Assembly (NCBI GenBank): GCA_036376635.1 | Contig: DASUZY010000052.1 | Coordinates: forward strand, 7,905-71,904 | Direction of reading: 5' to 3' | Length of the DNA: 64,000 bases | Origin: Sphingomicrobium sp. | GTDB lineage: Bacteria > Pseudomonadota > Alphaproteobacteria > Sphingomonadales > Sphingomonadaceae | In this document: in pieces, positions 4,378 to 20,372 of the stretch | Layout of the letters: each line of letters begins with the position of its first letter | How positions within the stretch are numbered: the stretch's first letter is position 1 | The notes under the pieces: generated by a model | Databases searched by the model: none | The model's input: only the letters and a program-made list of their open reading frames with translations | What the model was told of the DNA's origin: nothing | Translations under genes and position numbers: made by a program

Positions 4378-5758
4378 GGATCTTCCTGACGACACGCGTG
4401 CCGGCCTGTTAGCGAACGTCGCACCCGGCGACAATTCGCCAGCGCTCAGCGTCAGCGAATTATCGGGCGCGCTCAAACGGACGATCGAAAATGCCTTCGG
4501 CCAGGTCCGGGTGCGCGGCGAGATCAGCGGGTTCAAGCGCCACGCCTCCGGCCACTGCTATTTTACGCTCAAGGACGAGAATGCCTGCATCGATGCGGTG
4601 ATCTGGCGGACGAGCGCGGTCTCGCTTGCCTTCCGCCCGGAGGACGGCGCCGAGGTGATCGCGACCGGTAAGCTGACCACTTACCCTGGACGCTCGAAGT
4701 ACCAGATCGTCGTCGACCGCATGGAGCTGGCAGGGGAAGGGGCGCTACTCGCTCTTCTCGAGCGGCGGCGGAAGGCGCTCGCGGCGGAGGGCCTGTTCGC
4801 GCCCGAGCGCAAGCGGAAGCTGCCCTTCCTGCCGCGCGTGATTGGAGTGGTCAGCTCTCCGACAGGGGCTGTGATCCGCGACATCCTCCATCGGCTGGAA
4901 GACCGCTGTCCGACACGCGTTATCCTTTGGCCGGTACCTGTTCAGGGCGAGGGTTCAGCAACGAAGATCGCCGCCGCCATCCGCGCATTTCCTTCGCTCC
5001 AACCCAGGCCGGACCTGCTGATCGTCGCGCGCGGTGGCGGTTCGATCGAAGACCTGTGGGCGTTCAACGAGGAAGAGGTGGTGCGGGCGGCCGCGGAAAG
5101 TCCGATCCCGCTGATCTCCGCGGTAGGACATGAGACGGACACCACTTTGATCGACTTCGCGTCCGACCTGCGCGCGCCTACTCCGACGGCGGCAGCCGAG
5201 ATCGCCGTACCGGTGAGGGCGGAGCTGTTCGCTCAGCTCGGTGAGCTACAACACCGCGCGCAGCAGTGCCTGTCGCGGCGGGTAGAGCGTGGTCGGGAAC
5301 GGTTCGACCTCACGATCTGCCGCTGGCCGGAGCCACAGGCGATTTTCGCGCCGATGGCCCAGCGTCTCGATGAGATCGGCGAACGGCTGCCCCGGTCTCT
5401 GTCCGCACGTGCCGGGACGTCCCGCGCCGAGCTCAACCTGGTGGCCGGCCGGCTTCGGCGGGATGTGGTGGATCAACGGATTGCCCGTCTCACCGATCAG
5501 TTGGGCTCTCTCTGGAGGCTCGCAGAGCTGGCTCACCCCGACAAACCTCTGTCGCGGGGCTTCGCGCGGGTGACGAGCCGCGACGGCGAGACTTTAACGC
5601 ATGCACGCGCCGCGCGCGAGGCGCGGGGCCTGACCTTGCATTTCGCCGATGGGCCCGTCGATGCTTCGGTCGACGGTATTCGAACGCCGGTTGAGCAAAA
5701 GCGCCGCAAACCCTACATTCCTCCACAGCCGGGCCTGTTCGACCCGGCAGAGGATTGA
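4376..5758 (+). CDS. xseA: Exodeoxyribonuclease VII large subunit
   Basis: [62 protein letters not shown] at 4376 is the last usable start before the OB fold. Confidence 0.95.
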
Positions 5759-5762
5759 CGAC

Positions 5763-5969
5763 ATGCTGATGCAAGGCAGCGGCAAGGCCGCCCGCATTCA
5801 TTATCTGCCCGGCACCTTCCGGCTGTTGAGCGACGGAGATCACGTCGTGTGTGCCGTCACCGGCGCGCACATCCCGCTGCACGAGCTCAAATATTGGAGT
5901 GTCGACCGGCAGGAGCCATACGTCGACGCAGAAGCCAGCCTAAAGGCGGAGCAGCTCGGCCGGCGTTAG
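5763..5969 (+). CDS. DUF2093-like small protein
   Basis: GDHVVCAVTG-x-IPLHELKYWSVDRQEPY pattern; start reassigned to ATG 5763, just after the xseA stop. Confidence 0.8.
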   Translation: MLMQGSGKAARIHYLPGTFRLLSDGDHVVCAVTGAHIPLHELKYWSVDRQEPYVDAEASLKAEQLGRR

Positions 5970-6490
5970 TGAACGCGGCGGACGTGAACCCACTGCTGTC
6001 CGCCGATTTCCGCATAATAGCTGCCAAGGGCGCCGTGCTCGATCGTAACCTTGGCGCCAGCCTTGGGCTCGAATACCGACGAGCCTTCCGTGGATTCCCA
6101 GGTGGACTGGGGTTCAGTCAGCGTGAACTGGAAGAAGCCGTTAGCCAGCGGATGAAAGCTGCTTAGCGTCGAATCGATCTGCTTCGGCTCCTGATCTGCC
6201 GAACTCATTTTGGAATTCCCGAACAGGGCAATGCGAGGAAGTGAAAAGCCAAAGAGGGAGCGGCGTGTCTCGCGCACCTGTTCGCGATCGACGATCGCGA
6301 CGTCACCTCGATTGGTGGCTGTAACGAGCGCGGCCGCGGCGCGATCATAACAGGCGAGCCGCGCTGCGTTGTCCGCGATCGACTGGCAATTCTGAACTGC
6401 CTTGACGAGGCTCGATCCGGCGATTGCCGGGGCCGCTTGCTGAGGAGAAGTCGCCGCGGCGGCGGCTGCGAGAAGTAATGATCCGATCAT
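5966..6490 (-). CDS. Secreted hypothetical protein with a C-x2-I-x-D-x3-RLACYD motif
   Basis: Signal peptide (MIGSLLLAAAAAA); Cys pair in a helical N-domain; beta-rich C-domain; divergent from TBDR1. Confidence 0.75.
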   Translation of the reverse strand: MIGSLLLAAAAAATSPQQAAPAIAGSSLVKAVQNCQSIADNAARLACYDRAAAALVTATNRGDVAIVDREQVRETRRSLFGFSLPRIALFGNSKMSSADQEPKQIDSTLSSFHPLANGFFQFTLTEPQSTWESTEGSSVFEPKAGAKVTIEHGALGSYYAEIGGQQWVHVRRVH

Positions 6491-6717
6491 TCAAGAACCC
6501 CCAGCATCGGTCGCGATTTAGCACAGAAACTGGCACGCAACGACCGAACTTCAATCTGTGCCCCAAATGCAACACCCTTCAAACGTTATGCGAGTGGAGT
6601 AGTGGGCTTGATTGTCTCCCCTGTAATGTTTGGCCATAAACACCCTCTACTAAAGTGAAGCGGCCGCACGAGAGTTAGGGTGCGTGCCGCGGTTCCGTTC
6701 ATCCGAAGGGGAGAAAC

Positions 6718-9700
6718 ATGCGACTTTCCAGAACCGCTCTGCTCGCAACCACGTTGCTGTCGGGCGTTACCCTGGCTGGCCCTGCTTTTGCGCAGACCAC
6801 AACTACTGCGACGCCACCCACCCCGGCGCCAGCAACGCAGACCTGTGCTGACGGCACTGTGATTGCGGCCAGCGCAACTTGCACGGTCGCGCCGGCTCCT
6901 GCGTCCGTGGCACCCGCGACGCCAGCATCTTCCCAGGAGACGATTGTCGTCACCGGTTCGCGCATCGCGTCGCCGAACATCACGTCGCTCGCTCCGATCC
7001 AGGTCGTCGGTGAGCAGGAAATCAACCAGGCCGGCGCGGTCAACATTCAGGAAGTCCTGAACAACAACCCGGCGTTCGGTACGCCGGCCCTGTCAACGAC
7101 CACCACTGCGTTCCTGACCTCGGGCGCCGGTGTTGCGACCGTCAACCTTCGCCAGCTCGGTGAGAACCGCACCCTGGTGCTGATCAACAACCGCCGCGTC
7201 GTCGGCGGCCTCGCTGGTTCGCCGATCGTCGACTTGAACGACATCCCGACCCAGTTCCTCGAGCGCGTTGACATCCTGACCGGCGGTCAGTCGGCGTTGT
7301 ACGGCTCGGACGCCGTCGCCGGTGTCGTCAACTTCATCTACAAGCGCAATTTCGAGGGCCTACTGCTCGAAGGCCAGTACGGCCTGACTGAGCACGGCGA
7401 TTCGCAACGCTATCAGCTCAGCGCGACTGCCGGCGGCAACTTCGCCGACGGCCGCGGCAACATCATGGTCCACGTGGGCTATAGCTCCGACAAGGGCTTG
7501 CTCTCGCGTGAACGCAAGGACACGCGGGTCGATAACATCAGCCAGATGCAGTATTCGTACGATCCGGCTGATTATGCGGTGGCCCATACGCCGTTCCTGT
7601 CGAGCTATCCTCCGCAGGGCCGGTTCACGTCCGGCGGCATCACCTGGACCTACGGGCCAACGGGCCAGCTGCAGCCGTGCTTCACCACTAACGGCTCGAC
7701 CTGTAAGAGCGCGCTCGGCACGGGAACTGGACCGAACGGCTTTAACCGCCAGTTCTTCCGTACCCTGTCGACCCCGGTCGACCGCTATCTGTTCGCAGAG
7801 CGCAGCCACTTCGACATCACGGACAACATCAGCTTCGTGACCGAAGCGACCTATGCCAAGACGAAAGCGAGCTCGGATATTGAGCCGTTCCCGTTGGACT
7901 CGGTCAACATCAACCCGGTCGATGCAACCGTTCCGATCCAGCTGGTTCCGGGCGGCCCCTGCACCTTCTACACGCCGGCTCCGATCTGCGCCGCGGCTAC
8001 TGACTCGAACGGCGATGGCCTGAAGGACATAAGCTTCCGCAAGCGCTTGTCCGACGTTGGTGACCGTACGGCTACGGCCAATCGCGACTTCTTCCGCATT
8101 GTCGTGAGCCTCGAAGGCAAGCTGTTCCACGACCGGTTCAGCTGGGACATCGGCTACAATTACGGCTCGACCAGTGAAGCTCAGCACTCGACCGGGCAGG
8201 TCAACGTACTGAACTTCTACAACGCCCTTCAGGCAACGTCGGATGCAAACGGCAACCCCGTTTGCGCCAATCCGGTCGCGGTCGCCCAGGGCTGCGTCCC
8301 GCTGAACATCTTCGGCACCAACAGCATGACCCCGGCGATGCTCGCGTATATCAATGCCGACTCGCAGCATAACGTTCAGGTCAAGCAGCAGGTGTGGGAT
8401 GCCAACCTGTCGGGCAGCCTGTTCGATCTTCCCGCGGGTCCGCTCGGCATCGCCATCGGCGCCGAATACCGCAAGGAGTCCAGCACCGAGGACTGGGATG
8501 CGCTGACCAACGAGGGCCTGAACGGCGGCAACGTCCTTCCGGACACCTCGGGCCGGTTCAACGTCAAGGAAGCTTATGGCGAGGTCAACGTGCCGATCCT
8601 CAAGGATCTGCCGTTCGTCAAGCAGCTGAACGTTCGCGGCGCGGGTCGTATTTCCGACTATTCCACGATCGGTAGCGTCAAGACGTGGGAGGTCGGTGGC
8701 GACTGGGCCCCGATCGACGACATCCGCTTCCGCGCGACGTTGGCGAAGGCCGTCCGTGCGCCGAACATCGGCGAGCTGTTCACCGGCCTGTCGCAGACCT
8801 TCCCACTCGTTCGCGACCCTTGCCAAGGCATCGGCGCAACCGGTGGTGGAGCTCTCGGCGACAACTGCCGCGCAGCACCGGGTGTCGCTGCGAACATTGC
8901 GCAGAATGGAACGTTCACGCTGACGCAGGCTGACATCCAGGGTGTCAGCGGCTTCAACGGCGGCAACCCGAACCTCGGGCCGGAGACGGGCCGTACGTTC
9001 ACCGCCGGTGTCGTCATCGCGCCTCGGAACATCAGCTTCCTGCGCAATATGTCGCTCTCGGTCGACTACTGGCACATCAAGATCACCAACGCGATCACGA
9101 CGATCAGCCGTCAGCTGATCCTCGACCAGTGCTATCAGGACGGCTTGGCCAACGCCTGCTCGTTGATCACTCGTAACCCGACCCAGATCGGCGGTGCGAG
9201 CTCTGGTTCGATCAAGTTCGTGAACGACTTCGCGATCAACGCCGCGTCATCGACACGGTCGGGTATCGACGCTGTCCTGCAGTATCGCAGGGGTCTCGGC
9301 ACCTTGTTCGGCAGCCCGCTGAACATGAACGCCCGGATTGCCTACACGCACCTGTTGAAGGGCTACACGATCCCGCTTCCGGGTCAGCCGGCTGACCGTG
9401 TCGCGGGCGAAATCGGAACGCCGAAGGACAAGTTCAACGCAACTCTCGGTTTCGACAACCGCCAGTGGGGCTTGAACCTGACCGGGACATACATCGGCAA
9501 GTCGTACGAGGATGATCAGTTCCTGGACGCGTTCGGGCTCAACCCCGATGCGATCTCGATCAAGCCGATTTTCTACCTCGACGGGCAGCTCCGGTTCACG
9601 CCGGTGCGCAAGTTCGAGTTCTTCGTCGGCGTCGACAACATCACGAATGTGCAGGCTCCGGTCATCCTGTCCGGCTCGCCATTCAACACGACGGGTTCGA

Positions 9701-9768
9701 ACACCGACGAAGCGGTCTACGACGTGTTCGGCCGCCGCTACTACGCCGGTGCGCGCCTCCGCTTCTAA
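6718..9768 (+). CDS. TonB-dependent receptor (TBDR1)
   Basis: Signal peptide ending PAFA; TonB box ETIVVTGS; plug motifs LRQLGENRTLVLIN and YGSDAVAGVVNFI; terminal strand GRRYYAGARLRF. Confidence 0.95.
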   Translation: MRLSRTALLATTLLSGVTLAGPAFAQTTTTATPPTPAPATQTCADGTVIAASATCTVAPAPASVAPATPASSQETIVVTGSRIASPNITSLAPIQVVGEQEINQAGAVNIQEVLNNNPAFGTPALSTTTTAFLTSGAGVATVNLRQLGENRTLVLINNRRVVGGLAGSPIVDLNDIPTQFLERVDILTGGQSALYGSDAVAGVVNFIYKRNFEGLLLEGQYGLTEHGDSQRYQLSATAGGNFADGRGNIMVHVGYSSDKGLLSRERKDTRVDNISQMQYSYDPADYAVAHTPFLSSYPPQGRFTSGGITWTYGPTGQLQPCFTTNGSTCKSALGTGTGPNGFNRQFFRTLSTPVDRYLFAERSHFDITDNISFVTEATYAKTKASSDIEPFPLDSVNINPVDATVPIQLVPGGPCTFYTPAPICAAATDSNGDGLKDISFRKRLSDVGDRTATANRDFFRIVVSLEGKLFHDRFSWDIGYNYGSTSEAQHSTGQVNVLNFYNALQATSDANGNPVCANPVAVAQGCVPLNIFGTNSMTPAMLAYINADSQHNVQVKQQVWDANLSGSLFDLPAGPLGIAIGAEYRKESSTEDWDALTNEGLNGGNVLPDTSGRFNVKEAYGEVNVPILKDLPFVKQLNVRGAGRISDYSTIGSVKTWEVGGDWAPIDDIRFRATLAKAVRAPNIGELFTGLSQTFPLVRDPCQGIGATGGGALGDNCRAAPGVAANIAQNGTFTLTQADIQGVSGFNGGNPNLGPETGRTFTAGVVIAPRNISFLRNMSLSVDYWHIKITNAITTISRQLILDQCYQDGLANACSLITRNPTQIGGASSGSIKFVNDFAINAASSTRSGIDAVLQYRRGLGTLFGSPLNMNARIAYTHLLKGYTIPLPGQPADRVAGEIGTPKDKFNATLGFDNRQWGLNLTGTYIGKSYEDDQFLDAFGLNPDAISIKPIFYLDGQLRFTPVRKFEFFVGVDNITNVQAPVILSGSPFNTTGSNTDEAVYDVFGRRYYAGARLRF

Positions 9769-9793
9769 TCGAAGCCAGGTTGGTAAAGGACTT

Positions 9794-9826
9794 GGGCGGG
9801 GGCTTCGGCTCCCGCCCTTTTCTTTT
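9794..9826 (+). terminator. Intrinsic terminator of TBDR1
   Basis: gggcgggggc-ttcg-gctcccgccc hairpin followed by ttttctttt. Confidence 0.85.
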
Positions 9827-9849
9827 GTGCTTGGGGATGCCGAAGGTGG

Positions 9850-11652
9850 TTAGGGACGAAAGAGCGGCGCGTCGGGGTAGGAGTCCACGACGTCGCCCAA
9901 CGCGCGACGCAATGGCCCGAGCCACTGCTCGAAGTTCCGCCAATGATCGAGCCCAGCAAGGTTCATAGGGCGTCGAACTTGCTCGGAGCTAGGCGTCTTC
10001 ACTGCACGCTTGGTTTCGTGAAACCGAAGACAAGCTTCCTCGAACGGAAGCTCAAGATAGTCGAGGAGACTTCTAATCTCCTGCTCCGGTTCCCGGACCA
10101 GCTCCTCGTGAATGACACGGTGGACGCGACCGGGGAGCATCCGGTCCATGTGCTCCATCAGACGCACGTAGTCGCCGTAGTAACGCCCGAACCATTCGAG
10201 ATCGTAGCTGAAGGCCTGTCCGAAAACGAAATGCTGTTTGAAGTTCGAGAACCCGCAAGCCATCGGGTGCCGCCGCGCGTCAATGATCTTGGCGTTGGGC
10301 AGCATCAGGTGGATCAGTGGCGCCATCAGCCAATTGTTCGGCATCTTGTCGATGAAGCGCGGCTTGCCTTCGATGCGGAATGACTTCGTCTCATCGAGAT
10401 ATTGGGCCCCCATCGCCGCGAATTGTTCAGCGGGGAATGAGGCCAGTAGCTCCAGGAAATTTCGCTCCGCCCGCCCGGCATCACGAGCGACGGCCGACAG
10501 GTTGAGCAGTTCCATCGTCCCTTCGATTGCCGAATGACTCGCCAGGATTTGTTCGACCAACGTCGAACCGGCCCGTGGCATACCAAGCACGAAGACTGGT
10601 TCGCTGGATGGGTCGCCCCAACCTTCCCGCTCGCGGAAGAACTGCCCATCGAACATTGCGCAGAGTTCGTCGACTTCGGTCGTCACGTCGGCAGGATCAT
10701 AATCCAACGACTGCCTTCGGAGCGCATTTCCAGCTTCATAGTGCCGGAAGGCGGGCTCAAACTCGCCCGCATCTTCAAGCGCCTTGCCGAGCGCGAAATG
10801 CAGGTGGAAGCGGTTCTCAACCGAAACGTCGGGGTCACGTACCGCTGCTTCCATCTGGCGCAGGTCCTCGTCGGAAAAATCCGCAACCTTAAGGTTCGAT
10901 AAGTTCCACCATGCCGAGCCAGAAGCTGGTGCGATTTCGATCGCCGTGCGCATTGCCCGGCGACCTTCCTCGGAGCGCCCCACGGTCTTCAGCACATGTC
11001 CGTAGTTCGACCACAGCGTCGCATCGCGCGGCGCTTCCTGCAGGAGCTTCTCGTAAAGCGCGATCGATTCATTGTAGCGCGCGCCGCGGCTTAGCGCCTG
11101 GGCTTTGATTGACTGAGCCGCTCGGTTGGCCGGTTCCCTCTCGAGGATCCTATCGAGTTCCGCGATCGCTTCCAGCGGCCGATTTTGACGCTGTAGCTCC
11201 GAAGCGAGATCGAGTCGCCCGCCGTTGAACTGCGGTTGGAACTCCAGCGCAAGCCGAAGGAGCTGCTCGCATGCGTCATAGTAAGCGAGATCCCTAAGCA
11301 GTCTCGCCATCAATATAAGCGCATTCACGTCGGTCGGCCGCTGGATCAGCCTCTCGCGCAGAATTTTCTCGGCGGTTTCCAGGTCTCCGGCAGCAAGAGC
11401 GTCGGAGGCACGCATCAGCGGATGGTCGAAAGCTTGGACCGTGGTGCGCAGCTGCCCACCTGTCGCCGAATCCCTCTCCAACTGACCAAGCGCCTTCGCC
11501 AGTGTGCGATAGGCCGGGATGTTGAGGGGTTCGTCGGCGATTAGCAGCCGCAGCTCGTGGACAGCCGTCGTCGCGTCCGACCTTGCTTTCAGCTCAAGCT
11601 CGACCAGGCGCGGATCTTGCCGTGATTCTGTCATCTTCGTTTCAGCAGCCAA
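9850..11652 (-). CDS. TPR-repeat sulfotransferase family protein
   Basis: N-terminal TPR-like helical repeats; 5'-PSB motif GMPRAGSTLVEQIL; FIDKMPNN; RHPMACGFS (3'-PB region); VKTPSSEQVR. Confidence 0.92.
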   Translation of the reverse strand: MAAETKMTESRQDPRLVELELKARSDATTAVHELRLLIADEPLNIPAYRTLAKALGQLERDSATGGQLRTTVQAFDHPLMRASDALAAGDLETAEKILRERLIQRPTDVNALILMARLLRDLAYYDACEQLLRLALEFQPQFNGGRLDLASELQRQNRPLEAIAELDRILEREPANRAAQSIKAQALSRGARYNESIALYEKLLQEAPRDATLWSNYGHVLKTVGRSEEGRRAMRTAIEIAPASGSAWWNLSNLKVADFSDEDLRQMEAAVRDPDVSVENRFHLHFALGKALEDAGEFEPAFRHYEAGNALRRQSLDYDPADVTTEVDELCAMFDGQFFREREGWGDPSSEPVFVLGMPRAGSTLVEQILASHSAIEGTMELLNLSAVARDAGRAERNFLELLASFPAEQFAAMGAQYLDETKSFRIEGKPRFIDKMPNNWLMAPLIHLMLPNAKIIDARRHPMACGFSNFKQHFVFGQAFSYDLEWFGRYYGDYVRLMEHMDRMLPGRVHRVIHEELVREPEQEIRSLLDYLELPFEEACLRFHETKRAVKTPSSEQVRRPMNLAGLDHWRNFEQWLGPLRRALGDVVDSYPDAPLFRP

Positions 11653-11655
11653 AGA

Positions 11656-12396
11656 TCAGGGGCGATTGCCGATCGGGCCGGGTCGAGGGTCGGCCCGGAA
11701 CCAGCCGGTAACAGCCAAGCGCTCCGCGTTGACATAAGTCGATACCATCGAAACCGAATGAAGCTGCGGGATGGTGAAGATGTTCAGCGTATTGAACGTC
11801 GGCTTGAACGCCTCCTCGACGTTACCCTCTTTATCGAAGAACTGGAGAAATCCGCCCCAATCCTTGTCCCATACCGGCGACAAGTTCATCACATACGCTG
11901 CTCGCCGCCCCTCCCCACTATGTTCGTCGGTATGGGCCTTCAGGAAGTGCCCAGGCTTGTACCACGTCGCCTGAGCATCAGCCCATTTGATGTCATGGAG
12001 GCCAGTCACCTTGCGGATGAAATCAAGCACAGGCTCGCTGTTGATGAACTCGTAGAAGTCGAACACCGCGAAGCGCGGCGCGTCAGGTGAAAAGTAGGCG
12101 TTGAGGATCGGAAAGAACGAATAAATGAACTGATATTGCGTCCGCGCGCGTTCGCGGATGCCGGTCATAATCTGTGCGGCTTCTGTCTGCCCGAGCTGTG
12201 CCAGGTGCTCGGCGCTCAGCTGAACGACCTTGTCTCCATCATTGAAGGCCATTGCCCAAGGCAGCTGGTGAAGATCGGCGTGCACCTCTTCAGATGAGCC
12301 TTGAGCGAGGAAATCGTGGATCTGCAGCCGAAGCTTCTTCCGGTAATCGGCCGCGAGCGCGTCGGCATTCAGCGCAGGGTTCAGCAAGACTGACAC
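11656..12396 (-). CDS. 2OG-Fe(II) oxygenase, prolyl-4-hydroxylase/EGL-9-like
   Basis: ATWYKPGHFLKAHTD (HxD), WDKDWGGFLQF, distal His in QLHSV, and 2OG-binding Arg in ERLAVTGWF. No signal peptide. Confidence 0.88.
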   Translation of the reverse strand: MSVLLNPALNADALAADYRKKLRLQIHDFLAQGSSEEVHADLHQLPWAMAFNDGDKVVQLSAEHLAQLGQTEAAQIMTGIRERARTQYQFIYSFFPILNAYFSPDAPRFAVFDFYEFINSEPVLDFIRKVTGLHDIKWADAQATWYKPGHFLKAHTDEHSGEGRRAAYVMNLSPVWDKDWGGFLQFFDKEGNVEEAFKPTFNTLNIFTIPQLHSVSMVSTYVNAERLAVTGWFRADPRPGPIGNRP

Positions 12397-12469
12397 GTTG
12401 ACACCAACCTCCGGACTCAGGAACGTGCGCTGCGCCGCAGCACGCGGCTTCTAATGTTCAGAAGCGCCG

Positions 12470-13498
12470 ATGTCTTTGAAGAATGATGCCGCCCCGCTGA
12501 TTGCCGATCCGCAATGGTTTCCCTCCCGCTGGAATCCTCAGGATGGCACCATCCAGTTCGTCCGGCTGACGCGTGCCGAACATGACTCGGTCACCTTTCT
12601 CGGCGACGAATATCTGGCACCGCTGAACGCGCCGTCGACGATGCTTGCATTATCGGACGTTGCCAGGGCTTTGCCCCCGTCGCTTCCCTCACCGCAATAT
12701 ATCTTCCACTCCGCGTTCTGCGGCTCCACGCTATTGTCCCGCGCACTCAACGTGCCCGGCAGCGCGATGTCGCTGAAGGAACCCCAAATCCTGAATACGG
12801 TGACGGAAGCTGCCCGCTCGAATGCCTTGTCTCGTGAGACACTGCAGACGATCGTCGGGCTATTGGCGCGGCCGTTCGGTCCCAACGAGCGGGTCGTCAT
12901 CAAGCCAAGCAATGTCGTGAACCTGCTCGCCACCGGACTGCTCGAAATCGATTCCGGGTCGAACGCCATTTTCCTGTATGCGCCCCTGAACGGGTTTCTG
13001 CAGTCGATCGCGGACAAGGGCCTCTGGGGCCGGATCTTCGCTCGGCAGCTATTCCGGACGCTTCAGTCGGATACTGGCCTGACGTTCGGCTATTCGGTCG
13101 AGGAGACGCTCGATCTGACTGACCTTCAGGCGGCGGGCCTTGCCTGGCTGATGCACCACGCGCAGGCGGCGGCGCTGATGACGCGTTTGCCGGGTCGCGT
13201 ACGAACGCTCAACAGCGAGACCTTCCTCGCCCGTCGATCCGAGACAATCCTGGCGTCTGCGGCCCATCTTCGACTGGCAATCAGCGAAGCCAAAGCCGCG
13301 GAAATTGTCGACGGTCTGGTGTTTGCAACCCACTCAAAGCAGCTTGGGCAGGACTTCAACGAAGCCAAACAGCAATCGAAGTCGCGCGGCGCAATTGTAG
13401 ATGAAGAGATTGTAATGGTGGCAACATGGACGTCCGAAATGGCCAACCGGAACGGCCTGCCAATGCAGCTCCCGGCAGAGTTCCAGCTTATCCCCTAA
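12470..13498 (+). CDS. Hypothetical protein with a sulfotransferase-like P-loop
   Basis: IFHSAFCGSTLLSRAL, SLKEP and VVIKPS resemble sulfotransferase-fold elements, but the PSB Arg/Lys is missing. Confidence 0.65.
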   Translation: MSLKNDAAPLIADPQWFPSRWNPQDGTIQFVRLTRAEHDSVTFLGDEYLAPLNAPSTMLALSDVARALPPSLPSPQYIFHSAFCGSTLLSRALNVPGSAMSLKEPQILNTVTEAARSNALSRETLQTIVGLLARPFGPNERVVIKPSNVVNLLATGLLEIDSGSNAIFLYAPLNGFLQSIADKGLWGRIFARQLFRTLQSDTGLTFGYSVEETLDLTDLQAAGLAWLMHHAQAAALMTRLPGRVRTLNSETFLARRSETILASAAHLRLAISEAKAAEIVDGLVFATHSKQLGQDFNEAKQQSKSRGAIVDEEIVMVATWTSEMANRNGLPMQLPAEFQLIP

Positions 13499-13610
13499 GT
13501 GACGAAAAACTCATCGTAAGTTGTTAGAAAACCTATCTTTCGTTATTGTTACGGAATTACAACGGGCGGCCGAAGAAGTCGCTTCTGGAACATTACACCC
13601 GTTGTCGTTG

Positions 13611-13676
13611 CCCCTCTTTCTCTGATTAGTCTGCTCCCCGACACGAGGCGCCCATTCGTGTCGGGAGAAGAAGGGG
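13611..13676 (+). promoter_or_regulatory. Structured 5' leader of TBDR2 that can occlude the RBS
   Basis: Perfect 10-bp stem 13637-13665. An outer pairing of cccctctttctc with gagaagaagggg (11/12 pairs counting one G-U) covers the SD. Confidence 0.45.
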
Positions 13677-13684
13677 GATTCAGA

Positions 13685-16600
13685 ATGCAGAACCGTATTG
13701 GCGCCGTGCTGCGCTGTGGCAGCGCGTTCACCGCTATAGCGATTGCCGCAATGATGCCGACCGCGGCATCTGCAGCAGCTGCGGCCGATGCCGCACCGCC
13801 GGCCGATGCAACTCAGGCGGCGGCGCAGGCGGCAGCAACAACGCCAACCGGCACCAATGGCAATGAAATTGTCATTACCGGAACGCGCATCGCCGGCATC
13901 ACCAACGCCAACAGCCCGAGCCCGGTCTCGGTTACGACTAGCGAGCAGATCCAGCTTACCAAGTCGACCAGCGTTGAAGATGTCCTTCAACGCATGACGG
14001 GCCCTGACGCCAACGGCATATCGAACACCTCGAACAATGGCGGCACCGGCGTTTCCAGCGTCAGTTTGCGCAATCTCGGGCCGGCGCGAACGCTGGTCCT
14101 GATCGACGGCACGCGCCTGATCCCGAGCGGCGCTAACCAGTCGATCGTCGACATCAACTCGATTCCCGTCGCGATGATCGAGCGGATCGAAGTCCTCCGA
14201 GACGGTGCATCGTCCGTCTACGGTGCGGACGCGATTGGCGGCGTGGTCAACATCATTACTAAGCAGCACGCCAGTGGCGTTCACATCGAGGGTGGCGCGG
14301 GCGCCAGCCAACACGGCGGAGGCAACACCTACAACATCGCGGGTACGATTGCGGCCAATAGCGATGTTGCCAACGTCATCGTCGGATTCAGCTGGGATCA
14401 CCGCAATGCGCTGAATGGCTATCAACGCGACTGGGCCAACGATCCACACATCGGCGATCCAAACTATGAGGGTGGGTCCACCTATCGTACCCAGCTCGAT
14501 ACGCTTCAGTCCGAAGCGCCCGTCACGCTGACTAACGCGACGGTCGTGAACGGCGTGCTTCAGCCCGCTGGAACGACCATCTCCGGCCTGCTGGCGATTA
14601 ACGGGCAATTCTATACTCGGAAGAATCCGGCGGTGGCTGGCCTGCTGCCCAACACGGTGTTTCTCCCGGGACTTGGCGTCGTCAAGCTCAACGCAAACGG
14701 CAGCGCGAACGACCCGTACAACACGTTGTCCGGTTCGCTCGACCGTAAGGAGATCAACGCCGGAGCGCACTACGACATCAACGATAGTGTGACGGTATTC
14801 GCCGACGGTTTCTTCTCTCACCGCACATCGCAGCAGCTTCTCCGCCCGGAACCGCTGCTCGGTGATACAATCGGCAACTCGGTCTATCCGGGCTTCGCGG
14901 TGGCAGCGAACGCTCCTGGGAACTCAACCGGGACAGGCTACTTCGCCTATCTAACGCCAGATCAGTTCGGACCGAGAACTTATGATCAGTCGTCGGATAC
15001 CTGGCGCATCAGGGCCGGTCTGCGCGGCGACCTGTTTGGCGACTTCAAATATGAAGTTGCCGGCGTAGAGCAGCAGAACGACCAGCTTGTGCTGGTTCAC
15101 AACACCGGAAACTTCCTCCACCTGGGCGAGATGACCGGTCAGTTCCCGTGCCTCGACGTGCCGGGCGGCTGTACGGGCGGCGTGCCAACGACTCAGCCGA
15201 ACTGGTTCAATGGGCCTGAGAATATCTTCACCCCTGATCAGCTCGACTACGCCAAGTTCACCATGCAGAGCAGCCAGCATGCCTATGAGCGGTATGTCTA
15301 CGGCAACCTCTCCGGCTCCCTGTTCAGGCTTCCTGGAGGTGATGCGAAGATCTCCGTCGGCGGCGAGTATCGGAAGGAGTTCCTGAGCTTCCTGCCCGAT
15401 CAGCTTGAAAGCGAAGGGTTCGCTCCGAACCAGATCCAGCCGACTGCCGGCGGATATAACGTCAAGGGTCTGTACGGCGAATTGTACTTGCCGCTCATCA
15501 GCGATCGGCCCTTCTTCAAGGCATTCGACATCACGCCCAGCGGCCGTATCGACAAGTACAGCACGTTCGGCACGGCGAAGACCTGGAAGGTCGGTGCGAA
15601 CTGGGCATTGTCGGACGACATCCGCTTCCGCGGTGCATACGCGACCGGCTTCCGTGCGCCTCAGGTCACCGAGTTGTTCGGGGGCCAGGGTCTGTCGGAT
15701 CTGGGCGCGAGCGGTGATCCCTGCGAAACCAACCTGGCGTTGGCACCGGGCAACAGTAACGTCGGCAAGGGCTTGTTGGGCGCTGGTTCGCAGTGTTCCA
15801 AGGCAGTTGCTGGTGGCGCGGCGGTGACGACGTTCACTGATCCGCTCGACCAGATTGCCGGCAGCCAGGTCCAGGTTCTAATCGGCGGCAACCCCGCGCT
15901 GCAGCCCGAAAAGTCGCGCGGCTGGACTGTCGGCGGCGTGTTGACGCCCAGGTTCATGCCGGGCTTCTCGTTCGAGGCCGATTTCTATCGGACGAAGATC
16001 CGGAACCAGATTCTGACCGGCGGCGTCGCTACTGCGGTTGGCGCGGACTACGTCCTCCTCGACTGCTACGGTCCGAACCAGAATCCGGTGTCTTGCGCAC
16101 AGATCCAGCGTTCGGCGAACGGTGCAATCCTGCAGATCGACAGCCTTAACGACAATATCGGCACTCAGACCGTCAAGGGCTATGATCTCGAGCTAACGTT
16201 CGACACCGGCCGGGCGCACTGGGCCATGCCGATCCCGGGCTCGATCCGCCTCGATGCGCAATTGTCGCGGCTGATCCAGAACGACATCGTGAACGCCGAT
16301 GGCAGCGTGACGAGCTATGCGGGCACCTTCAACGTCAACAACGAGACGGTCTATCCAAAGTGGAAAGGCCTTATCAACATCGACTACGCGAACCGCGGCT
16401 GGGGTCTGCACTGGGATGCCCAGTACAGCTCGAAGCTCGTCAATGTTGATGGCTCGACGCCGGTGTACGGCAACGAAGTCCACGATCGCTGGATCCATTC
16501 AGCCAGCGTTTGGGTCGGACTGCATGACTGGGCGGGTCTGTCGCGAGCCCGGCTGGTGCTTGGCGTAGATAATGTCTTCGACAAGAACCCGCCGTTCATC

Positions 16601-16876
16601 GGCACCGACTCAATCTGTAAGTGCAACTCGATCGCGGGTCCGTACGACTTCACCGGAAGGATGTTCTACTTCCGGTTCTCGGCCGACATCGATCGTCACC
16701 GGCCGGTTGCGCCGCCGCCTCCGCCGCCACCCCCGCCGCCTCCGCCGCCTCCAGCGACAGTGACGTGCGAGTCCGGCGCGGTGATCACGGCTCCGGGCAC
16801 CTGCCCAGCTCCGCCGCCGCCTCCGCCTCCGCCTCCGGCCCCGCCGCCGCCGGCTCCGGCGCCCGAGCGCGGCTAA
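13685..16876 (+). CDS. TonB-dependent receptor (TBDR2) with a C-terminal polyPro/C-x11-C/PERG tail
   Basis: ATG 13685 after aggggg SD; TonB box NEIVITGT; LRNLGPARTLVLIDG; YGADAIGGVVNII; last strand GRMFYFRFSADI followed by a ~60-aa tail. Confidence 0.95.
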   Translation: MQNRIGAVLRCGSAFTAIAIAAMMPTAASAAAAADAAPPADATQAAAQAAATTPTGTNGNEIVITGTRIAGITNANSPSPVSVTTSEQIQLTKSTSVEDVLQRMTGPDANGISNTSNNGGTGVSSVSLRNLGPARTLVLIDGTRLIPSGANQSIVDINSIPVAMIERIEVLRDGASSVYGADAIGGVVNIITKQHASGVHIEGGAGASQHGGGNTYNIAGTIAANSDVANVIVGFSWDHRNALNGYQRDWANDPHIGDPNYEGGSTYRTQLDTLQSEAPVTLTNATVVNGVLQPAGTTISGLLAINGQFYTRKNPAVAGLLPNTVFLPGLGVVKLNANGSANDPYNTLSGSLDRKEINAGAHYDINDSVTVFADGFFSHRTSQQLLRPEPLLGDTIGNSVYPGFAVAANAPGNSTGTGYFAYLTPDQFGPRTYDQSSDTWRIRAGLRGDLFGDFKYEVAGVEQQNDQLVLVHNTGNFLHLGEMTGQFPCLDVPGGCTGGVPTTQPNWFNGPENIFTPDQLDYAKFTMQSSQHAYERYVYGNLSGSLFRLPGGDAKISVGGEYRKEFLSFLPDQLESEGFAPNQIQPTAGGYNVKGLYGELYLPLISDRPFFKAFDITPSGRIDKYSTFGTAKTWKVGANWALSDDIRFRGAYATGFRAPQVTELFGGQGLSDLGASGDPCETNLALAPGNSNVGKGLLGAGSQCSKAVAGGAAVTTFTDPLDQIAGSQVQVLIGGNPALQPEKSRGWTVGGVLTPRFMPGFSFEADFYRTKIRNQILTGGVATAVGADYVLLDCYGPNQNPVSCAQIQRSANGAILQIDSLNDNIGTQTVKGYDLELTFDTGRAHWAMPIPGSIRLDAQLSRLIQNDIVNADGSVTSYAGTFNVNNETVYPKWKGLINIDYANRGWGLHWDAQYSSKLVNVDGSTPVYGNEVHDRWIHSASVWVGLHDWAGLSRARLVLGVDNVFDKNPPFIGTDSICKCNSIAGPYDFTGRMFYFRFSADIDRHRPVAPPPPPPPPPPPPPPATVTCESGAVITAPGTCPAPPPPPPPPPAPPPPAPAPERG

Positions 16877-16898
16877 ACCTCGGAGCTGACCAACGAGA

Positions 16899-16928
16899 GG
16901 GGCGGTGCCTAGCACCGCCCCCTTTTTT
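16899..16928 (+). terminator. Intrinsic terminator of TBDR2
   Basis: ggggcggtgc-cta-gcaccgcccc followed by tttttt. Confidence 0.85.
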
Positions 16929-16951
16929 GCGCCCGAGCGAAGTGTCGGGTC

Positions 16952-16969
16952 TGTGACGCAATTGTCACA
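16952..16969. promoter_or_regulatory. Palindromic operator candidate TGTGAC-N6-GTCACA
   Basis: Perfect 6-bp arms between the TBDR2 terminator and the TBDR3 leader. Confidence 0.45.
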
Positions 16970-17102
16970 CCAGCATAACGAAAGATAACAGTCTTATCGG
17001 AGCGTGTTGCCTCCCACCCCCTTACTTTGGATAGGAGTCTGTTCGCGGGCCTCCGCGAATGGGGAGGGGTCGCGCCGGCTTGTCCGGCTGAAAGGGAGCG
17101 AC

Positions 17103-20100
17103 ATGACACTGACAAAATCGCGTATCGCCGCCGGTTGGCGGTGCGGAACCGCTGCGACGGCCATCGCCGTTGCCGCGATCGCCACGCCTGCTTTCGCGCA
17201 GGATCAAGGCGCCAGCAGCACTTCGACTGCGGCCAAGGACCAGAACCAGGGGACTGCAGCACCCCAGGTCGGAACGAATGCACCGGCTGTTCCTGTCTCG
17301 AACGTCAATCCAGGGGCGACGCCGAGCAACCAGGAAATCGTCATCACCGGCACGATGTTCCGGCGTACCAACACGGAGACGCCGTCTCCGGTGACCGTCC
17401 TCTCTTCTGAAACCCTGTCGAGGCGCGGCATCACCACTGTCGCGGACGCGGTTCGCTCGATCTCCGCTGACAATTCGGGCTCGGTTCCGACTGCCTTCTC
17501 CAACGGCTTTGGCAGCGGCGGCGCGGCCCCCTCTCTTCGCGGCCTGACGGTCAATTCGACGCTGGTGCTAATGGACGGCCAGCGCATCTCCATTTTCCCG
17601 CTCGCCGACGACGGCCAGCGCAACTTCGTCGACCTCAACACGCTCCCGCGCGTCGCGCTGGACCGTATCGAGGTGCTGAAGGACGGCGCATCGTCGACCT
17701 ACGGCGCAGACGCGATCGGCGGCGTGGTCAACCTCATCACGCGCAAGTCATTCAACGGTCTTGACGCCAACATTGAGGGCGGAATTACTCAGAAGGGCGA
17801 TGGCGCGCATTGGCGCGGTTCGTTCCTGGCCGGCACCGGCGATTACGACAATCGCGGGTTCAACATTTATGTTGGCGGCGAATATGAGCTGAACAAGGCG
17901 ATCTACACGGCGGATCGCGGATTCCCTTACAACACGGCGAACCTTTCGAACCTGCCGGGCGGACAGGACCTCAACTGGGGCACGTTCATCAATGGTTCGA
18001 GCTCACAGAGCCCGGTGTTCGTCACGGTTCCGGCTTCGCAATCCGATCTGACGGATCCGCGGACGGGGTCGATCATCTCCGGCGGCGCGTCAGTCATTCT
18101 CAACCCGTCCCAGTGCGGTGCGTTCAATGGATCGATCGTTCCGGGTACGAACGGCGGACAGACCTGCGAGATCAACCAGTATCTGATCAAGCCAGGCCTG
18201 ACGATCCAACCGAAGACCGTAAGGTACGGCGGCGTGGTTCGCGCGTCGGTTCGCGTTTCGGACAACAGCGAAGCCTATGTGATGGGCAGCTTCTATCGCA
18301 GCCAGGCGACAGTCTACCCGCTTGGCGCGCGCACTCGCTCGACCAACCCGATCAATACCACGAGCCTCGTTCTTCCGGCTTACCTAACAAACGGTTCGAT
18401 CGACCCCTACGATCCGTTCGCGTCGGCCGGGTGCGATGCGACCGACACGACGGCAGCCAACTACTGTCCGGCCGCGTTGCTTCGCTTCCGCTTTCCGAAC
18501 ATCGCACGTACGGCAACGGGAACCAGTAGCGTGTGGCGCATCGCGGCTGGCATCAACGGTGGGTTCGGCGATGCCTGGCACTACCAGGTGGATGCTACCG
18601 CATCGGCCAGCGACCTGCACCGCGTGTCGACCGGCAACATCTATTACCCGGCGCTCGCGAACGCGATCAACAACGGACTCTACAACTTCGCCGATCCGCT
18701 TGCGACACCGGCGAATGTCGTCAACGACATCCTGCGGACTGTCGACACCACGTCGCAGTCCCAGCTGTTCGGTGTGCAGGGCACCATCTCCCGGGCGCTG
18801 TTCCAGCTTCCGGGCGGACCGCTGCAACTCGGCGTGGGTGCTCAAATCCGCCACGAGGAGCTCGACAACCCGAACCAGAATCCGAACAACGACTTCATCG
18901 ACGTGAACCAGGTGTTCGCGAAGGGTCAGCGGACGGTCGAGGCCGGATATTTCGAAATCTCGGCGCCGATCGTGAAGCAGCTCGAGGTCGACGTTTCGGG
19001 CCGGTACGACCATTACTCGGCCGGATTCAGCGCGTTCTCGCCGAAGGCTGGGTTCAAGTTCACACCGATCCGCCAGCTGGCTTTCCGCGGAACATACTCC
19101 CGCGGTTTCCGCGCTCCTTCGTTCGCTGAGAGCGGCGGTGGTGTCATCGGCTTCACCACGGTTCGACCACCCTGCATCGTTCGAATCACGCACGGTGCGA
19201 CGGGCGATGCGGACAACTGCTCGGGCGGTGACAACTACGTCAATTCGCAGGCTCTCGGGTATAACTCCGCGGGTAACCCGAACCTGAAGCCCGAAAAGTC
19301 GCGTAACTTCACGCTTGGTGTCGTTGCCCAGCCGATTGCTCCGCTGAGCTTCACGTTGGACTATTACAACATCAAGAAGACCGACGTGATTACGCAAGGT
19401 CCGCTCGCCAATACGGCGATCGAGAACTTCTACGAAGGCTTGCCATTGCCGCCTGGTTATTCGGTTCAGACCTACCCGGCTGATCCGGATTTCCCGAACG
19501 GCATCCCGGTCGTGTCGATTGTGAACACGCCATATGTGAACGCGGCGTCGATCCAGACCTCGGGTCTCGACTTCTCGGCGCTGTTCCAGAAGCGGTTCTC
19601 ACCGTCTGTCCGGTTCTCGAGCACGCTCGAGGTCACCAAGATCCTGAAGTTCAACCTGACGCCGTGCGGCGGGTGCGCGGTTCAGCATTATGCAGGCACC
19701 TTGGGCCCGTACCAGCTGTCGTCGGGTGCCGGTACGCCGGACTGGCGCGGCAACTGGTCGAACAGCCTGGAGTTTGGCCGGGCTACGGTGACGGCGACCG
19801 CCAACTATATCGGCAGCTATTGGGACTACTCGGAGGACACGAGCGCTCTGCCGATTACCGACAAGTGCGTTGCGGCGGGCGATCTGTACGACTCGCACTT
19901 CTGCAAGACCAAGAAGTTCATCTGGGTTGACCTGGTCGGCAGCTTCAAGCTCAACGACAACGTCACGATTTACGGCAACGTGCTGAACCTGTTCAACGCG
20001 CATGCCCCGATCGAGCCGGCGAACTACGCCGGTGCGGCGGCCAACTACAACCCGACCTGGGACCAGGCGGGTGCAATTGGCCGGGCGTTCCGTTTGGGCG

Positions 20101-20297
20101 TGAACTTCAGCTTCCGCCCGCGTCCGTACGTTGCACCGGTCGCTCCGGTCATGGCTCCGCCGCCTCCGCCGCCCCCGGCGACGGTGACGTGCGAGTCTGG
20201 TGCGGTGATCACGGCTCCGGGTACCTGCCCGCCGGCTCCGGCGCCGCAGCTTCCGCCGCCGCCACCGCCGCCGGCGCCGGCTCCAGAGCGCGGTTAA
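17103..20297 (+). CDS. TonB-dependent receptor (TBDR3) with a C-terminal polyPro/C-x11-C/PERG tail
   Basis: ATG 17103 after agggag SD; TonB box QEIVITGT; LRGLTVNSTLVLMDG; YGADAIGGVVNLI; last strand GRAFRLGVNFSF followed by a 60-aa tail. Confidence 0.95.
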   Translation: MTLTKSRIAAGWRCGTAATAIAVAAIATPAFAQDQGASSTSTAAKDQNQGTAAPQVGTNAPAVPVSNVNPGATPSNQEIVITGTMFRRTNTETPSPVTVLSSETLSRRGITTVADAVRSISADNSGSVPTAFSNGFGSGGAAPSLRGLTVNSTLVLMDGQRISIFPLADDGQRNFVDLNTLPRVALDRIEVLKDGASSTYGADAIGGVVNLITRKSFNGLDANIEGGITQKGDGAHWRGSFLAGTGDYDNRGFNIYVGGEYELNKAIYTADRGFPYNTANLSNLPGGQDLNWGTFINGSSSQSPVFVTVPASQSDLTDPRTGSIISGGASVILNPSQCGAFNGSIVPGTNGGQTCEINQYLIKPGLTIQPKTVRYGGVVRASVRVSDNSEAYVMGSFYRSQATVYPLGARTRSTNPINTTSLVLPAYLTNGSIDPYDPFASAGCDATDTTAANYCPAALLRFRFPNIARTATGTSSVWRIAAGINGGFGDAWHYQVDATASASDLHRVSTGNIYYPALANAINNGLYNFADPLATPANVVNDILRTVDTTSQSQLFGVQGTISRALFQLPGGPLQLGVGAQIRHEELDNPNQNPNNDFIDVNQVFAKGQRTVEAGYFEISAPIVKQLEVDVSGRYDHYSAGFSAFSPKAGFKFTPIRQLAFRGTYSRGFRAPSFAESGGGVIGFTTVRPPCIVRITHGATGDADNCSGGDNYVNSQALGYNSAGNPNLKPEKSRNFTLGVVAQPIAPLSFTLDYYNIKKTDVITQGPLANTAIENFYEGLPLPPGYSVQTYPADPDFPNGIPVVSIVNTPYVNAASIQTSGLDFSALFQKRFSPSVRFSSTLEVTKILKFNLTPCGGCAVQHYAGTLGPYQLSSGAGTPDWRGNWSNSLEFGRATVTATANYIGSYWDYSEDTSALPITDKCVAAGDLYDSHFCKTKKFIWVDLVGSFKLNDNVTIYGNVLNLFNAHAPIEPANYAGAAANYNPTWDQAGAIGRAFRLGVNFSFRPRPYVAPVAPVMAPPPPPPPATVTCESGAVITAPGTCPPAPAPQLPPPPPPPAPAPERG

Positions 20298-20310
20298 GCG
20301 ATACACAAAA

Positions 20311-20372
20311 GGGGGAGGGCGCTTCGGCACCCCCCCCACCGACTCCAGAGGCGCCTTCGGGCGCCTCTTTTT
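20311..20372. terminator. Tandem UUCG hairpins; probably a bidirectional terminator between TBDR3 and clpB
   Basis: Imperfect gggggagggcgc-ttcg-gcacccccccc, then perfect agaggcgcc-ttcg-ggcgcctct followed by tttt. Confidence 0.8.

Follow-up and report, generated by a model that had tools for sequence, protein, structure and literature searches.

The 64,000-nt stretch of the Sphingomicrobium sp. genome analyzed here (GenBank assembly GCA_036376635.1, contig DASUZY010000052.1, positions 7,905 to 71,904; hereafter the window) carries, at positions 5966-20372, a locus in which genes for TonB-dependent receptors (TBDRs) lie among genes for a hydroxylase-like and two sulfotransferase-like enzymes. 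These soluble enzymes of a soil-type sphingomonad are reminiscent of the prolyl hydroxylases and tyrosine sulfotransferases that act on proteins in animals. An earlier inspection of the letters alone (the sequence-only reading) had drawn a gene map of this locus, and the list of open reading frames (ORFs), together with Pfam and NCBIfam scans of the window, agreed with it in both ORFs and domains:

5966-6490, minus strand: cys174, 174 aa, with a hydrophobic N-terminus and a Cys pair
6718-9768, plus strand: TBDR1, 1016 aa, with Plug and barrel domains
9850-11652, minus strand: TPR-sulfotransferase, 600 aa, with tetratricopeptide repeats (TPR) and a Sulfotransfer_3 domain (E 5e-43)
11656-12396, minus strand: Fe(II)/2-oxoglutarate (2OG) oxygenase, 246 aa, with 2OG-FeII_Oxy_4/3 domains
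12470-13498, plus strand: p342, 342 aa, with no Pfam or NCBIfam match
13658-16876, plus strand: TBDR2, with Plug and barrel domains
17004-20297, plus strand: TBDR3, with Plug and barrel domains

The locus is framed by housekeeping genes: purD and xseA precede it, and clpB follows it. The stop codon of the oxygenase lies 3 nt ahead of the TTG start of the TPR-sulfotransferase, and given this gap, the two genes are probably co-transcribed. TBDR2 probably starts at the ATG at 13685, and TBDR3 at the one at 17103. Because stem-loop terminators follow all three receptor genes, the locus comprises at least five transcription units, with TBDR2 and TBDR3 forming separate units that each end in their own terminator:

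9794-9817: terminator stem-loop between the convergent TBDR1 and TPR-sulfotransferase genes, a 10-bp GC-rich stem followed by a T run
16899-16921: terminator stem-loop of TBDR2
20347-20368: terminator stem-loop of TBDR3

Receptor genes are dense at this site: of the approximately 13 TBDR genes in the 2.46-Mb genome, three fall within these 14 kb, and none of the genome's three TPR-sulfotransferase genes is more than 7 kb away from a TBDR. To follow this association across genomes, we recovered more than 567 relatives of the TPR-sulfotransferase from a scan of species-representative genomes, fetched 80 loci and identified the neighbors by clustering the adjoining ORFs (L, G and C numbers below are our handles for loci, genomes and contigs). 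Three of these loci (L001-L003) are syntenic orthologs of the window locus; in Sphingomonas hankyongi (L003), the closest syntenic genome, the gene order is clpB, p342, oxygenase, TPR-sulfotransferase, TBDR1, cys174, xseA and purD. The others (L004-L080) hold an approximately 50% identical TPR-sulfotransferase paralog whose immediate downstream neighbor encodes an 810-aa receptor; an APC-family permease often comes next. A co-oriented TBDR started less than 400 nt after the paralog in 64 of the 71 loci with enough sequence, drawn from Sphingomonadales, Caulobacterales, Solilutibacter and gammaproteobacterial metagenome-assembled genomes, and 17 loci presented an operon of TPR-sulfotransferase, TBDR and APC-family amino-acid permease.

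Furthermore, across one order, the xseA-clpB island combines a TBDR1-type receptor, a cys174-like protein, p342, a hydroxylase and TPR-sulfotransferases. Although rearranged, a clpB-side island with a TBDR1-type receptor, a TPR-sulfotransferase and a hydroxylase was present in two or more families of this order. The clpB-adjacent island of one other family comprised a cys174 homolog, a TPR-AspH protein, a TBDR1-type receptor, a TPR-sulfotransferase, an oxygenase, a TPR-2OG-FeII_Oxy_5 protein and a second receptor, sometimes with a methyltransferase at its end. Metagenome contigs retrieved via p342 and cys174 homologs displayed the same xseA-clpB island, in which the hydroxylase was either of the prolyl hydroxylase domain (PHD)-like or the TPR-Asp_Arg_Hydrox type, and the enzyme content of the island differed even among three genomes of the genus. 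The clustering of receptors and enzymes is not due to chance. The receptor linkage supposed by the sequence-only reading was borne out by the downstream receptors in 64 of 71 loci, by the xseA-clpB island and by the p342/hydroxylase neighborhoods described below: the enzymes are conserved partners of TonB-dependent receptors, and the module is very likely a real functional unit.

Only one of the three receptors belongs to the core of this module. The locus of Sphingomonas hankyongi lacks both TBDR2 and TBDR3, so the idea of three TBDRs acting as one system was not supported; TBDR1 is the sole core receptor, and TBDR2 and TBDR3 are lineage-specific additions. TBDR1 orthologs are 62% identical and keep their position in L001 and L003, and TBDR1-type receptors, 28-33% identical, adjoin the enzymes across the order. 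The C-terminus of TBDR1 is normal (...ARLRF), ending on an aromatic residue, and a Pro-flanked C-x11-C loop specific to the genus lies in its N-terminal part, at residues 43-55 (nt 6844-6882).

The second element of the core is cys174. Its 333 homologs are unnamed and none has a Pfam domain; C35 and C47 form an invariant pair, conservation is complete or almost complete at R76-F82 and W131, and a flexible linker contains the invariant motif RRSLFGF. The AlphaFold2 (AF2) model (predicted local distance difference test score, pLDDT, 74.8) consists of an N-terminal Cys-pair helical hairpin, a linker and a small C-terminal beta barrel, and a fold search against PDB returned no significant match, the best being an unrelated OB-like domain (E 0.035). 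A cys174 homolog is divergent from a TBDR in L003, L115, L119, L131, L135, L136, L139, L147 and L149, and we predict that the protein is a small periplasmic partner of TBDR1-type receptors. Collectively, these comparisons delineate a widespread and variable module, with a TBDR1-type receptor and cys174 as its core and soluble cytoplasmic tailoring enzymes around it; the module is probably peptide-directed.

Among the enzymes, p342 had the least prior annotation. Its close homologs, at least 379 in number, are all unnamed and without Pfam domains, and a profile search of 1.84 billion representatives delimited a family of 2,706 clusters, 933 of them at E ≤1e-30. Searching PDB by Foldseek with an AF2 model built on 38 homologs (pLDDT 92.4, predicted TM-score 0.91), we found that the top 50 matches were all sulfotransferases (TM-scores 0.42-0.55), with the sulfotransferase CurM ST as the best match (E 1.7e-6), followed by tyrosylprotein sulfotransferases (TPSTs) and Teg14. 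The model predicts a sulfotransferase fold for p342, and the label of sulfotransferase-like given to it by the sequence-only reading holds at the level of the fold. One distant member of the family matches PF00685 at E 4e-4. The putative P-loop of p342, assigned by sequence spacing, is a non-canonical HSAFCGST in which S86 and T87 are invariant. As a separate matter, homology to the local sulfotransferase domain by hhalign was too weak to be accepted (E 0.043, probability 1.2%), the match spanning only the C-terminal ...PGRV...E.L...P motif.

The neighbors of p342 are hydroxylases of three unrelated families. It lies beside a PHD-like hydroxylase related to the window oxygenase in the window, L003, L134, G037 and G109, beside a TPR-AspH hydroxylase in L139, L145, L147, L148 and L151, and beside a YbiX-type hydroxylase both on another contig of the same assembly (C140) and in the same-genus genome G149 (L143). 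In two families, high-scoring p342 orthologs converge with the gene of a TBDR1-type receptor and diverge from that of a TPR-AspH protein. Adjacency to the PHD-like oxygenase itself, considered as a general rule, was rejected, holding in approximately 4 of the 22 genomes with both genes; the rule is that p342 stands beside some hydroxylase or a TBDR1-type receptor.

Several individual loci were recorded alongside these counts. Contig C140 (657-2997, minus strand) encodes two tandem YbiX homologs, 33% identical to E. coli YbiX (E 2e-38), followed by a p342 paralog in the same operon. In G149, a YbiX-type and p342 operon (L143:3542-5211) lies directly downstream of clpB and beside a TPR-sulfotransferase, with a TPR-2OG-FeII_Oxy_5-like and a probable TPR-AspH protein, both assigned by sequence resemblance only, as further neighbors. 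A putative single ORF of the representative library (P0252, 839 aa) joins a p342-family domain at 5-340 to TPR repeats and Sulfotransfer_3, being either a natural p342/TPR-sulfotransferase fusion or the product of merged gene calls. At the clpB site of G140 (L144, G140:C1:476000-484000), the genes encode, in order, a 281-aa protein whose N-terminus resembles by eye the methyltransferase of L119, a CysNC-like protein with a kinase domain for adenosine 5′-phosphosulfate (APS), and a TPR-sulfotransferase; this CysNC-like gene would be a dedicated paralog for synthesis of 3′-phosphoadenosine 5′-phosphosulfate (PAPS) beside the transferase. The pairing with three hydroxylase families, the putative P0252 fusion and the CysNC-like neighbor in G140 support the idea that a hydroxylase and a sulfotransferase-fold enzyme form a working pair that would be PAPS-dependent. 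The sequence-only reading had envisaged a pathway that hydroxylates and then sulfates; the recurring pairing is consistent with it, although p342 and not the TPR-sulfotransferase is the constant partner.

The oxygenase of the window is PHD/prolyl 4-hydroxylase (P4H)-like, matching PF13661 at 80 bits and PF13640 at 65 bits. Its triad H155-x-D157...H213 and the 2OG-binding R226 are conserved in 50-51 of 53 homologs, and with HxD...H...R kept across the family, the active site looks intact and the enzyme appears to be active. Its nearest solved relatives by sequence are OGFOD1 (E 6e-8), Pseudomonas PPHD (E 2e-5) and EGLN1, a likeness confined to an approximately 95-residue catalytic core; prolyl hydroxylation of a protein is predicted from homology to these three. 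We rejected membership in the YbiX/PiuC/CciO family, as BLASTP against E. coli YbiX gave E 0.77; the contig C140 protein, serving as a positive control, matched YbiX over its full length at E 2e-38. Homologs of the oxygenase occur in 52 of 151 genomes of the order. In G026, a member of a small-genome family of the same order, oxygenase paralogs form tandem arrays of three (C15:5078-7239 and C94:28885-31212; L116:9974-12669), and two Sel1-repeat proteins adjoin one of these arrays, with no receptor within 10 kb; the Sel1-repeat protein scanned against Pfam is fused to a 2OG-FeII_Oxy_3 domain.

The TPR-sulfotransferase combines a TPR array at approximately residues 80-260 with a Sulfotransfer_3 domain at residues 352-539 (PF13469, 148 bits against a Pfam cut-off of 27). 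Sulfotransferases are recognized by a 5′-phosphosulfate-binding (PSB) loop, P-K/R-x-G-S/T-T, and a 3′-phosphate-binding (PB) region, R...S; the putative counterparts here are PRAGST at 359-364 and RRHPMACGFS at 460-469, and with both motifs present, the enzyme looks catalytically active. The closest solved relatives of the catalytic domain by sequence are TPSTs (E 4e-8 to 1e-3) and CurM ST, and the nearest PDB match of the TPR array is of the O-GlcNAc transferase (OGT) type. Since the TPR-sulfotransferase, the oxygenase and p342 possess neither a signal peptide nor a hydrophobic segment (maximum 19-residue Kyte-Doolittle mean ≤1.31), all three look soluble and cytoplasmic.

The other two TPR-sulfotransferase genes of the genome differ in setting. 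The second (contig C16:14979-19290, minus strand; 48% identical) shares an operon with the gene of an 857-aa receptor. The third (contig C81:32000-47000; 28% identical) lies amid apparent carbohydrate-uptake genes for N-acetylglucosamine (GlcNAc) and the phosphotransferase system (PTS), comprising a receptor end and hexosaminidase-like, PTS EI-like, EIIC-like, GH3-like and LacI-like regulator genes; these neighbors were identified by eye, and the TPR-sulfotransferase alone was assigned by a Pfam scan. Across L004-L080, a TetR regulator also often follows the TPR-sulfotransferase/TBDR pair, besides the APC-family amino-acid permease.

TBDR2 and TBDR3 end in Pro-rich Cys-loop tails; the sequence-only reading had named the receptors themselves as candidate substrates of the enzymes. 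In TBDR2, a 65-aa tail (nt 16679-16873) follows the barrel end ...FYFRF, and in TBDR3, a 60-aa tail (nt 20115-20294) follows ...NFSF, so that neither protein ends on an aromatic residue. The two tails share 84% DNA identity over 120 nt, whereas the barrels are only 25-30% identical in protein. At least eight proteins of the genome carry such a tail, and the tail coding pattern TGYSCNGAYGGNWSNGTNATH was present in G140 and G149, which have no oxygenase, and absent from G070 and G077, which have one. Tails in genomes without the oxygenase do not mark receptors as substrates; they are a genus-wide feature of outer-membrane proteins, and the tails were rejected as enzyme substrates on the grounds of this lack of co-occurrence and of the number of carriers. 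Moreover, the N-termini of the enzyme-linked receptors showed no clade-specific motif or site beyond the usual TonB-box region, and the receptors as substrates, their tails especially, were not borne out.

The tail module itself has the form polyPro, (T)QTC(P/A)DGSVI..(A)T..CP, polyPro and a terminal ...(AP)ERG-COOH. Several outer-membrane barrel proteins end in this module as a C-terminal tail, and one lipoprotein (C66) contains three copies of it; beyond the window, the module occurs on contigs C18, C29, C66, C94, C97 and C110 of the same assembly. Among eight genomes tested, only the three of this genus had its coding pattern.

We then considered the non-coding parts of the locus, where the following elements stood out:

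6550-6575: conserved block TTCAATCTGTGCCCCAAATGCAACAC, in the divergent intergenic region between cys174 and TBDR1
6622-6630: conserved block TGTAATGTT, in the same cys174/TBDR1 intergenic region
12452-12466: TAATGTTCAGAAGCG (reverse complement of CGCTTCTGAACATTA), in the divergent intergenic region between the oxygenase and p342
13534-13546: TATCTTTCGTTAT, upstream of TBDR2, with an inverted copy at 16975-16987 upstream of TBDR3
13580-13595: CGCTTCTGGAACATTA, upstream of TBDR2 and common to the oxygenase/p342 intergenic region

The TTCAATCTGTGCCCCAAATGCAACAC block (reverse complement TGTTGCATTT..CACAGATTGAA) also lies upstream of cys174 homologs in L001, L003, L135 and L139, and TTCAATCTGTGCCCCAAATGCAACAC and TGTAATGTT are probably promoter or operator elements. 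A sequence of the form CGCTTCTG(G)AACATTA occurs both in the oxygenase/p342 intergenic region and upstream of TBDR2; this 15-16 nt match is not likely to be due to chance, making co-regulation of the two regions through a shared element possible. AACATTA alone has 50 sites in the genome, 11 of them intergenic, of which the three at this locus face cys174, the oxygenase and TBDR2. The 12-mer core ATCTTTCGTTAT of TATCTTTCGTTAT occurs nowhere else in the genome than at its two sites. A Sigma-70 promoter scan of the locus gave two sites against 2.9 expected, no convincing Fur box was detected in the four intergenic regions (best 10-11 of 19 positions of the 19-nt Fur consensus), and a search for riboswitches and known RNAs in the locus produced none, with four Rfam matches all far below gathering scores.

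Gene content excludes several familiar kinds of locus. Within 5966-20372, there is no glycoside hydrolase, sulfatase, siderophore gene, sigma/anti-sigma pair or inner-membrane transporter, and the intergenic regions hold only unsupported ORFs of 27-38 aa, in accordance with the sequence-only reading, which had seen no small precursor ORF. A siderophore or iron-uptake locus was ruled out by the lack of genes for non-ribosomal peptide synthetases (NRPS) or NRPS-independent siderophore synthetases and of a convincing Fur box. A carbohydrate-utilization or polysaccharide-utilization locus was likewise ruled out, given that glycoside hydrolases, an inner-membrane transporter and a regulator are lacking in this interval; the same reading had dismissed both types of locus, rightly by these diagnostic genes. 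A sulfated peptide system of the RaxST-RaxX type, in which a ribosomally synthesized and post-translationally modified peptide (RiPP) would be the product, was ruled out as there is no supported precursor and no ABC or type I secretion system gene.

The module can be set beside several known systems. In CciT-CciO, in Fiu-YbiX of E. coli and in PiuA-PiuC of Pseudomonas, as in the window, a TBDR gene adjoins the gene of a soluble cytoplasmic P4H-superfamily dioxygenase. The function of CciT in Caulobacter crescentus strictly needs the adjacent cytoplasmic YbiX-type dioxygenase CciO, without which the CciT protein is still made; three models were offered for the mechanism of this dependence (Hernandez-Ortiz et al. 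2025, PMC12004947). Unlike these pairs, the window has an oxygenase without BLASTP similarity to YbiX and shows no Fur box, TBDR1 with its 1016 aa is not of the Fiu/PiuA type, and the module adds sulfotransferases, TPR scaffolds and a periplasmic partner. Comparative genomics had also uncovered neighborhoods of the same class as the window locus, which combine a TonB-like receptor, a classical 2OG dioxygenase and a sulfotransferase, with or without a tryptophan halogenase and SapC; the role predicted for them was hydroxylation of a peptide-derived product, followed by its sulfation, methylation or acylation (Iyer, Abhiman, de Souza and Aravind, NAR 2010, PMC2938197). In contrast to those neighborhoods, the window locus has no halogenase, SapC or NRPS gene, and the passages of the paper considered here do not describe the p342 family, the cys174 partner or the TPR-sulfotransferase-TBDR operon. 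A search of the literature library used here returned no paper on TPR-sulfotransferases and, for sulfotransferases in conjunction with TonB-dependent receptors, nothing relevant beyond Iyer 2010.

Of the solved structures, those of TPST1/2 and tick TPST are the closest in sequence to the catalytic domain of the TPR-sulfotransferase, and TPSTs also rank among the top fold matches of p342. The PHD/OGFOD1/PPHD prolyl hydroxylases share Pfam families with the oxygenase, supply its best PDB sequence matches and have the HxD...H...R residues that are intact in it; the oxygenase family forms tandem arrays in some relatives, unlike the single-copy hydroxylases of translation factors. RaxST of Xanthomonas, acting on RaxX, is a bacterial precedent for cytoplasmic peptide sulfation and is not known to have a TPR array. 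Compared with the RaxST-RaxX system, the window locus has neither a RaxX-like precursor gene nor a RaxABC-type exporter, and tyrosine sulfation, as performed by TPST and RaxST, needs no prior hydroxylation.

We tentatively favor, while giving it somewhat less than an even chance as a whole, a mechanism in which the enzymes tailor a self-made, peptide-like ligand of TBDR1. The substrate would be the cell's own peptide-like or amino-acid-derived molecule, modified in the cytoplasm: the oxygenase would add a hydroxyl group, which p342, the TPR-sulfotransferase or both would then O-sulfate with PAPS, while the TPR array would grip the extended substrate. The product would exit the cell by some route and re-enter via TBDR1, alone or with a scarce nutrient, with cys174 acting in the periplasm. 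The function of TBDR1 would thus depend on cytoplasmic enzymes, as in CciT-CciO ("model 1" of PMC12004947). Enzyme sets vary within the genus, which is typical of tailoring steps on a diffusible product.

A number of observations weigh against this proposal of a tailored ligand. TBDR1 is convergent to the enzyme operon and is not co-transcribed with the enzymes; neither a scaffold gene (NRPS, polyketide synthase or RiPP precursor) nor an exporter is present at or next to the locus; and the enzymes' nearest solved relatives have proteins, not metabolites, as their targets. At the canonical 5′-PSB position, p342 has no basic residue (Lys/Arg), so that its chemistry may differ from that of canonical sulfotransferases, and some members of its family stand alone (L136 and L154). 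Many oxygenase paralogs occupy housekeeping contexts with no TBDR within 10 kb, some of them in tandem arrays, so that, taken overall, the oxygenase family has a looser link to receptors. The shared AACATTA 7-mer, taken alone, could be a chance occurrence after multiple testing. Finally, homologs of APS kinase (PF01583), CysD and CysNC were not found in the assembly (146 contigs, 95.7% completeness), which bears on any claim of PAPS-dependent sulfation in this organism. APS kinase is present in 19 of 19 relatives, and the whole 6-kb cysDNC region of G149 (L142, G149:C1:1141500-1147500), including a conserved ferredoxin gene, has no counterpart in the assembly; because the flanking genes are missing as well, the likeliest explanation for the absence of cysD and cysNC is an assembly gap, namely a missing contig.

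Those protein-modifying relatives (TPST, OGT-type TPR, OGFOD1, PPHD and EGLN) are also the starting point of an account that we regard as unlikely, in which the TPR-guided enzymes would hydroxylate and O-sulfate unfolded TBDR1, cys174 or another envelope precursor before Sec export, the marks being needed for the receptor to work. Nearly every module enzyme in the relatives is fused to TPR or Sel1 repeats, the lack of a scaffold gene, precursor or exporter would be accounted for, the RRSLFGF of cys174 in its low-confidence flexible linker could be a recognition or modification site, and CciT is made yet inactive without CciO. To set against this, no Tyr, Pro or Asp site conserved in a clade-specific manner was seen in the N-termini of the enzyme-linked receptors, the presence of Pro-rich Cys-loop tails does not follow that of the oxygenase, TBDR/cys174 pairs without any enzyme exist (L136), and the enzyme set differs among close relatives that keep similar receptors. 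We know of no precedent for cytoplasmic modification of Sec substrates of such a kind. A more elaborate version, which we consider a little more doubtful still, is a cytoplasmic system that modifies proteins specifically for TonB-dependent transport: TPR-guided hydroxylases of the PHD, AspH and YbiX types and sulfotransferase-fold enzymes including p342 would mark a receptor precursor or cys174, for example at the RRSLFGF linker, and the receptor would be inactive without the marks. If true, this would also explain why CciT needs CciO.

The traffic could also run inward, TBDR1 importing a peptide, an amino-acid derivative or an aromatic compound that the enzymes then hydroxylate and sulfate, serving nutrient release, detoxification or an uptake gradient (model 3 of the CciT-CciO paper). 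The 17 loci with TPR-sulfotransferase, TBDR and APC permease would provide such a route through the outer and inner membranes to a cytoplasmic enzyme, the third paralog (C81) resides within an apparent GlcNAc/PTS uptake locus, and receptor genes are usually found clustered with those of enzymes acting on their cargo. Nevertheless, spending PAPS on an imported nutrient would be costly and has no known bacterial precedent, no inner-membrane transporter is encoded at the locus, and catabolism does not typically rely on TPR scaffolds or PHD-like oxygenases; this reading, too, seems improbable to us. Lastly, the genes might form no functional unit at all, the xseA-clpB interval being a hotspot for accessory genes that are co-inherited by synteny without a common substrate. 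Species of one genus differ in what the island contains, a single chromosomal site accounts for much of the conservation, chance proximity is frequent in TBDR-rich genomes, and the locus has at least five transcription units. We deem a mere hotspot very unlikely, since the same gene classes recur regardless of exact family or orientation, recurrence extends away from the clpB site (64 of 71 operon loci, contig C140, L131 and L146), and a putative p342/TPR-sulfotransferase fusion protein exists (P0252).

TonB-dependent receptors are a main nutrient gate of Gram-negative bacteria and an entry route for siderophore antibiotics, and the module is a larger, widespread relative of the receptor/dioxygenase partnership. 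The p342 family, without a Pfam or NCBIfam model, offers a concrete new handle on it, tying YbiX/CciO-type dioxygenases to a sulfotransferase-fold partner. The identity of the substrate would reveal a new class of sulfated, hydroxylated ligand, a new envelope-protein modification or a new handling of imported compounds.

Beyond the module, two details of the flanking map deserve mention. A coding sequence probably fills the space between xseA and cys174: window positions 5649-5969 (plus strand) would encode a small protein, overlapping the cys174 stop by 4 nt, at the position where relatives have a 69-aa DUF2093 gene, to which it is a candidate for assignment. The longest ORFs of purD (3118-4536, minus strand) and xseA (4034-5758, plus strand) overlap by approximately 500 nt; the Pfam match begins at residue 55 of PurD and at residue 138 of XseA, and the true starts are probably further downstream.

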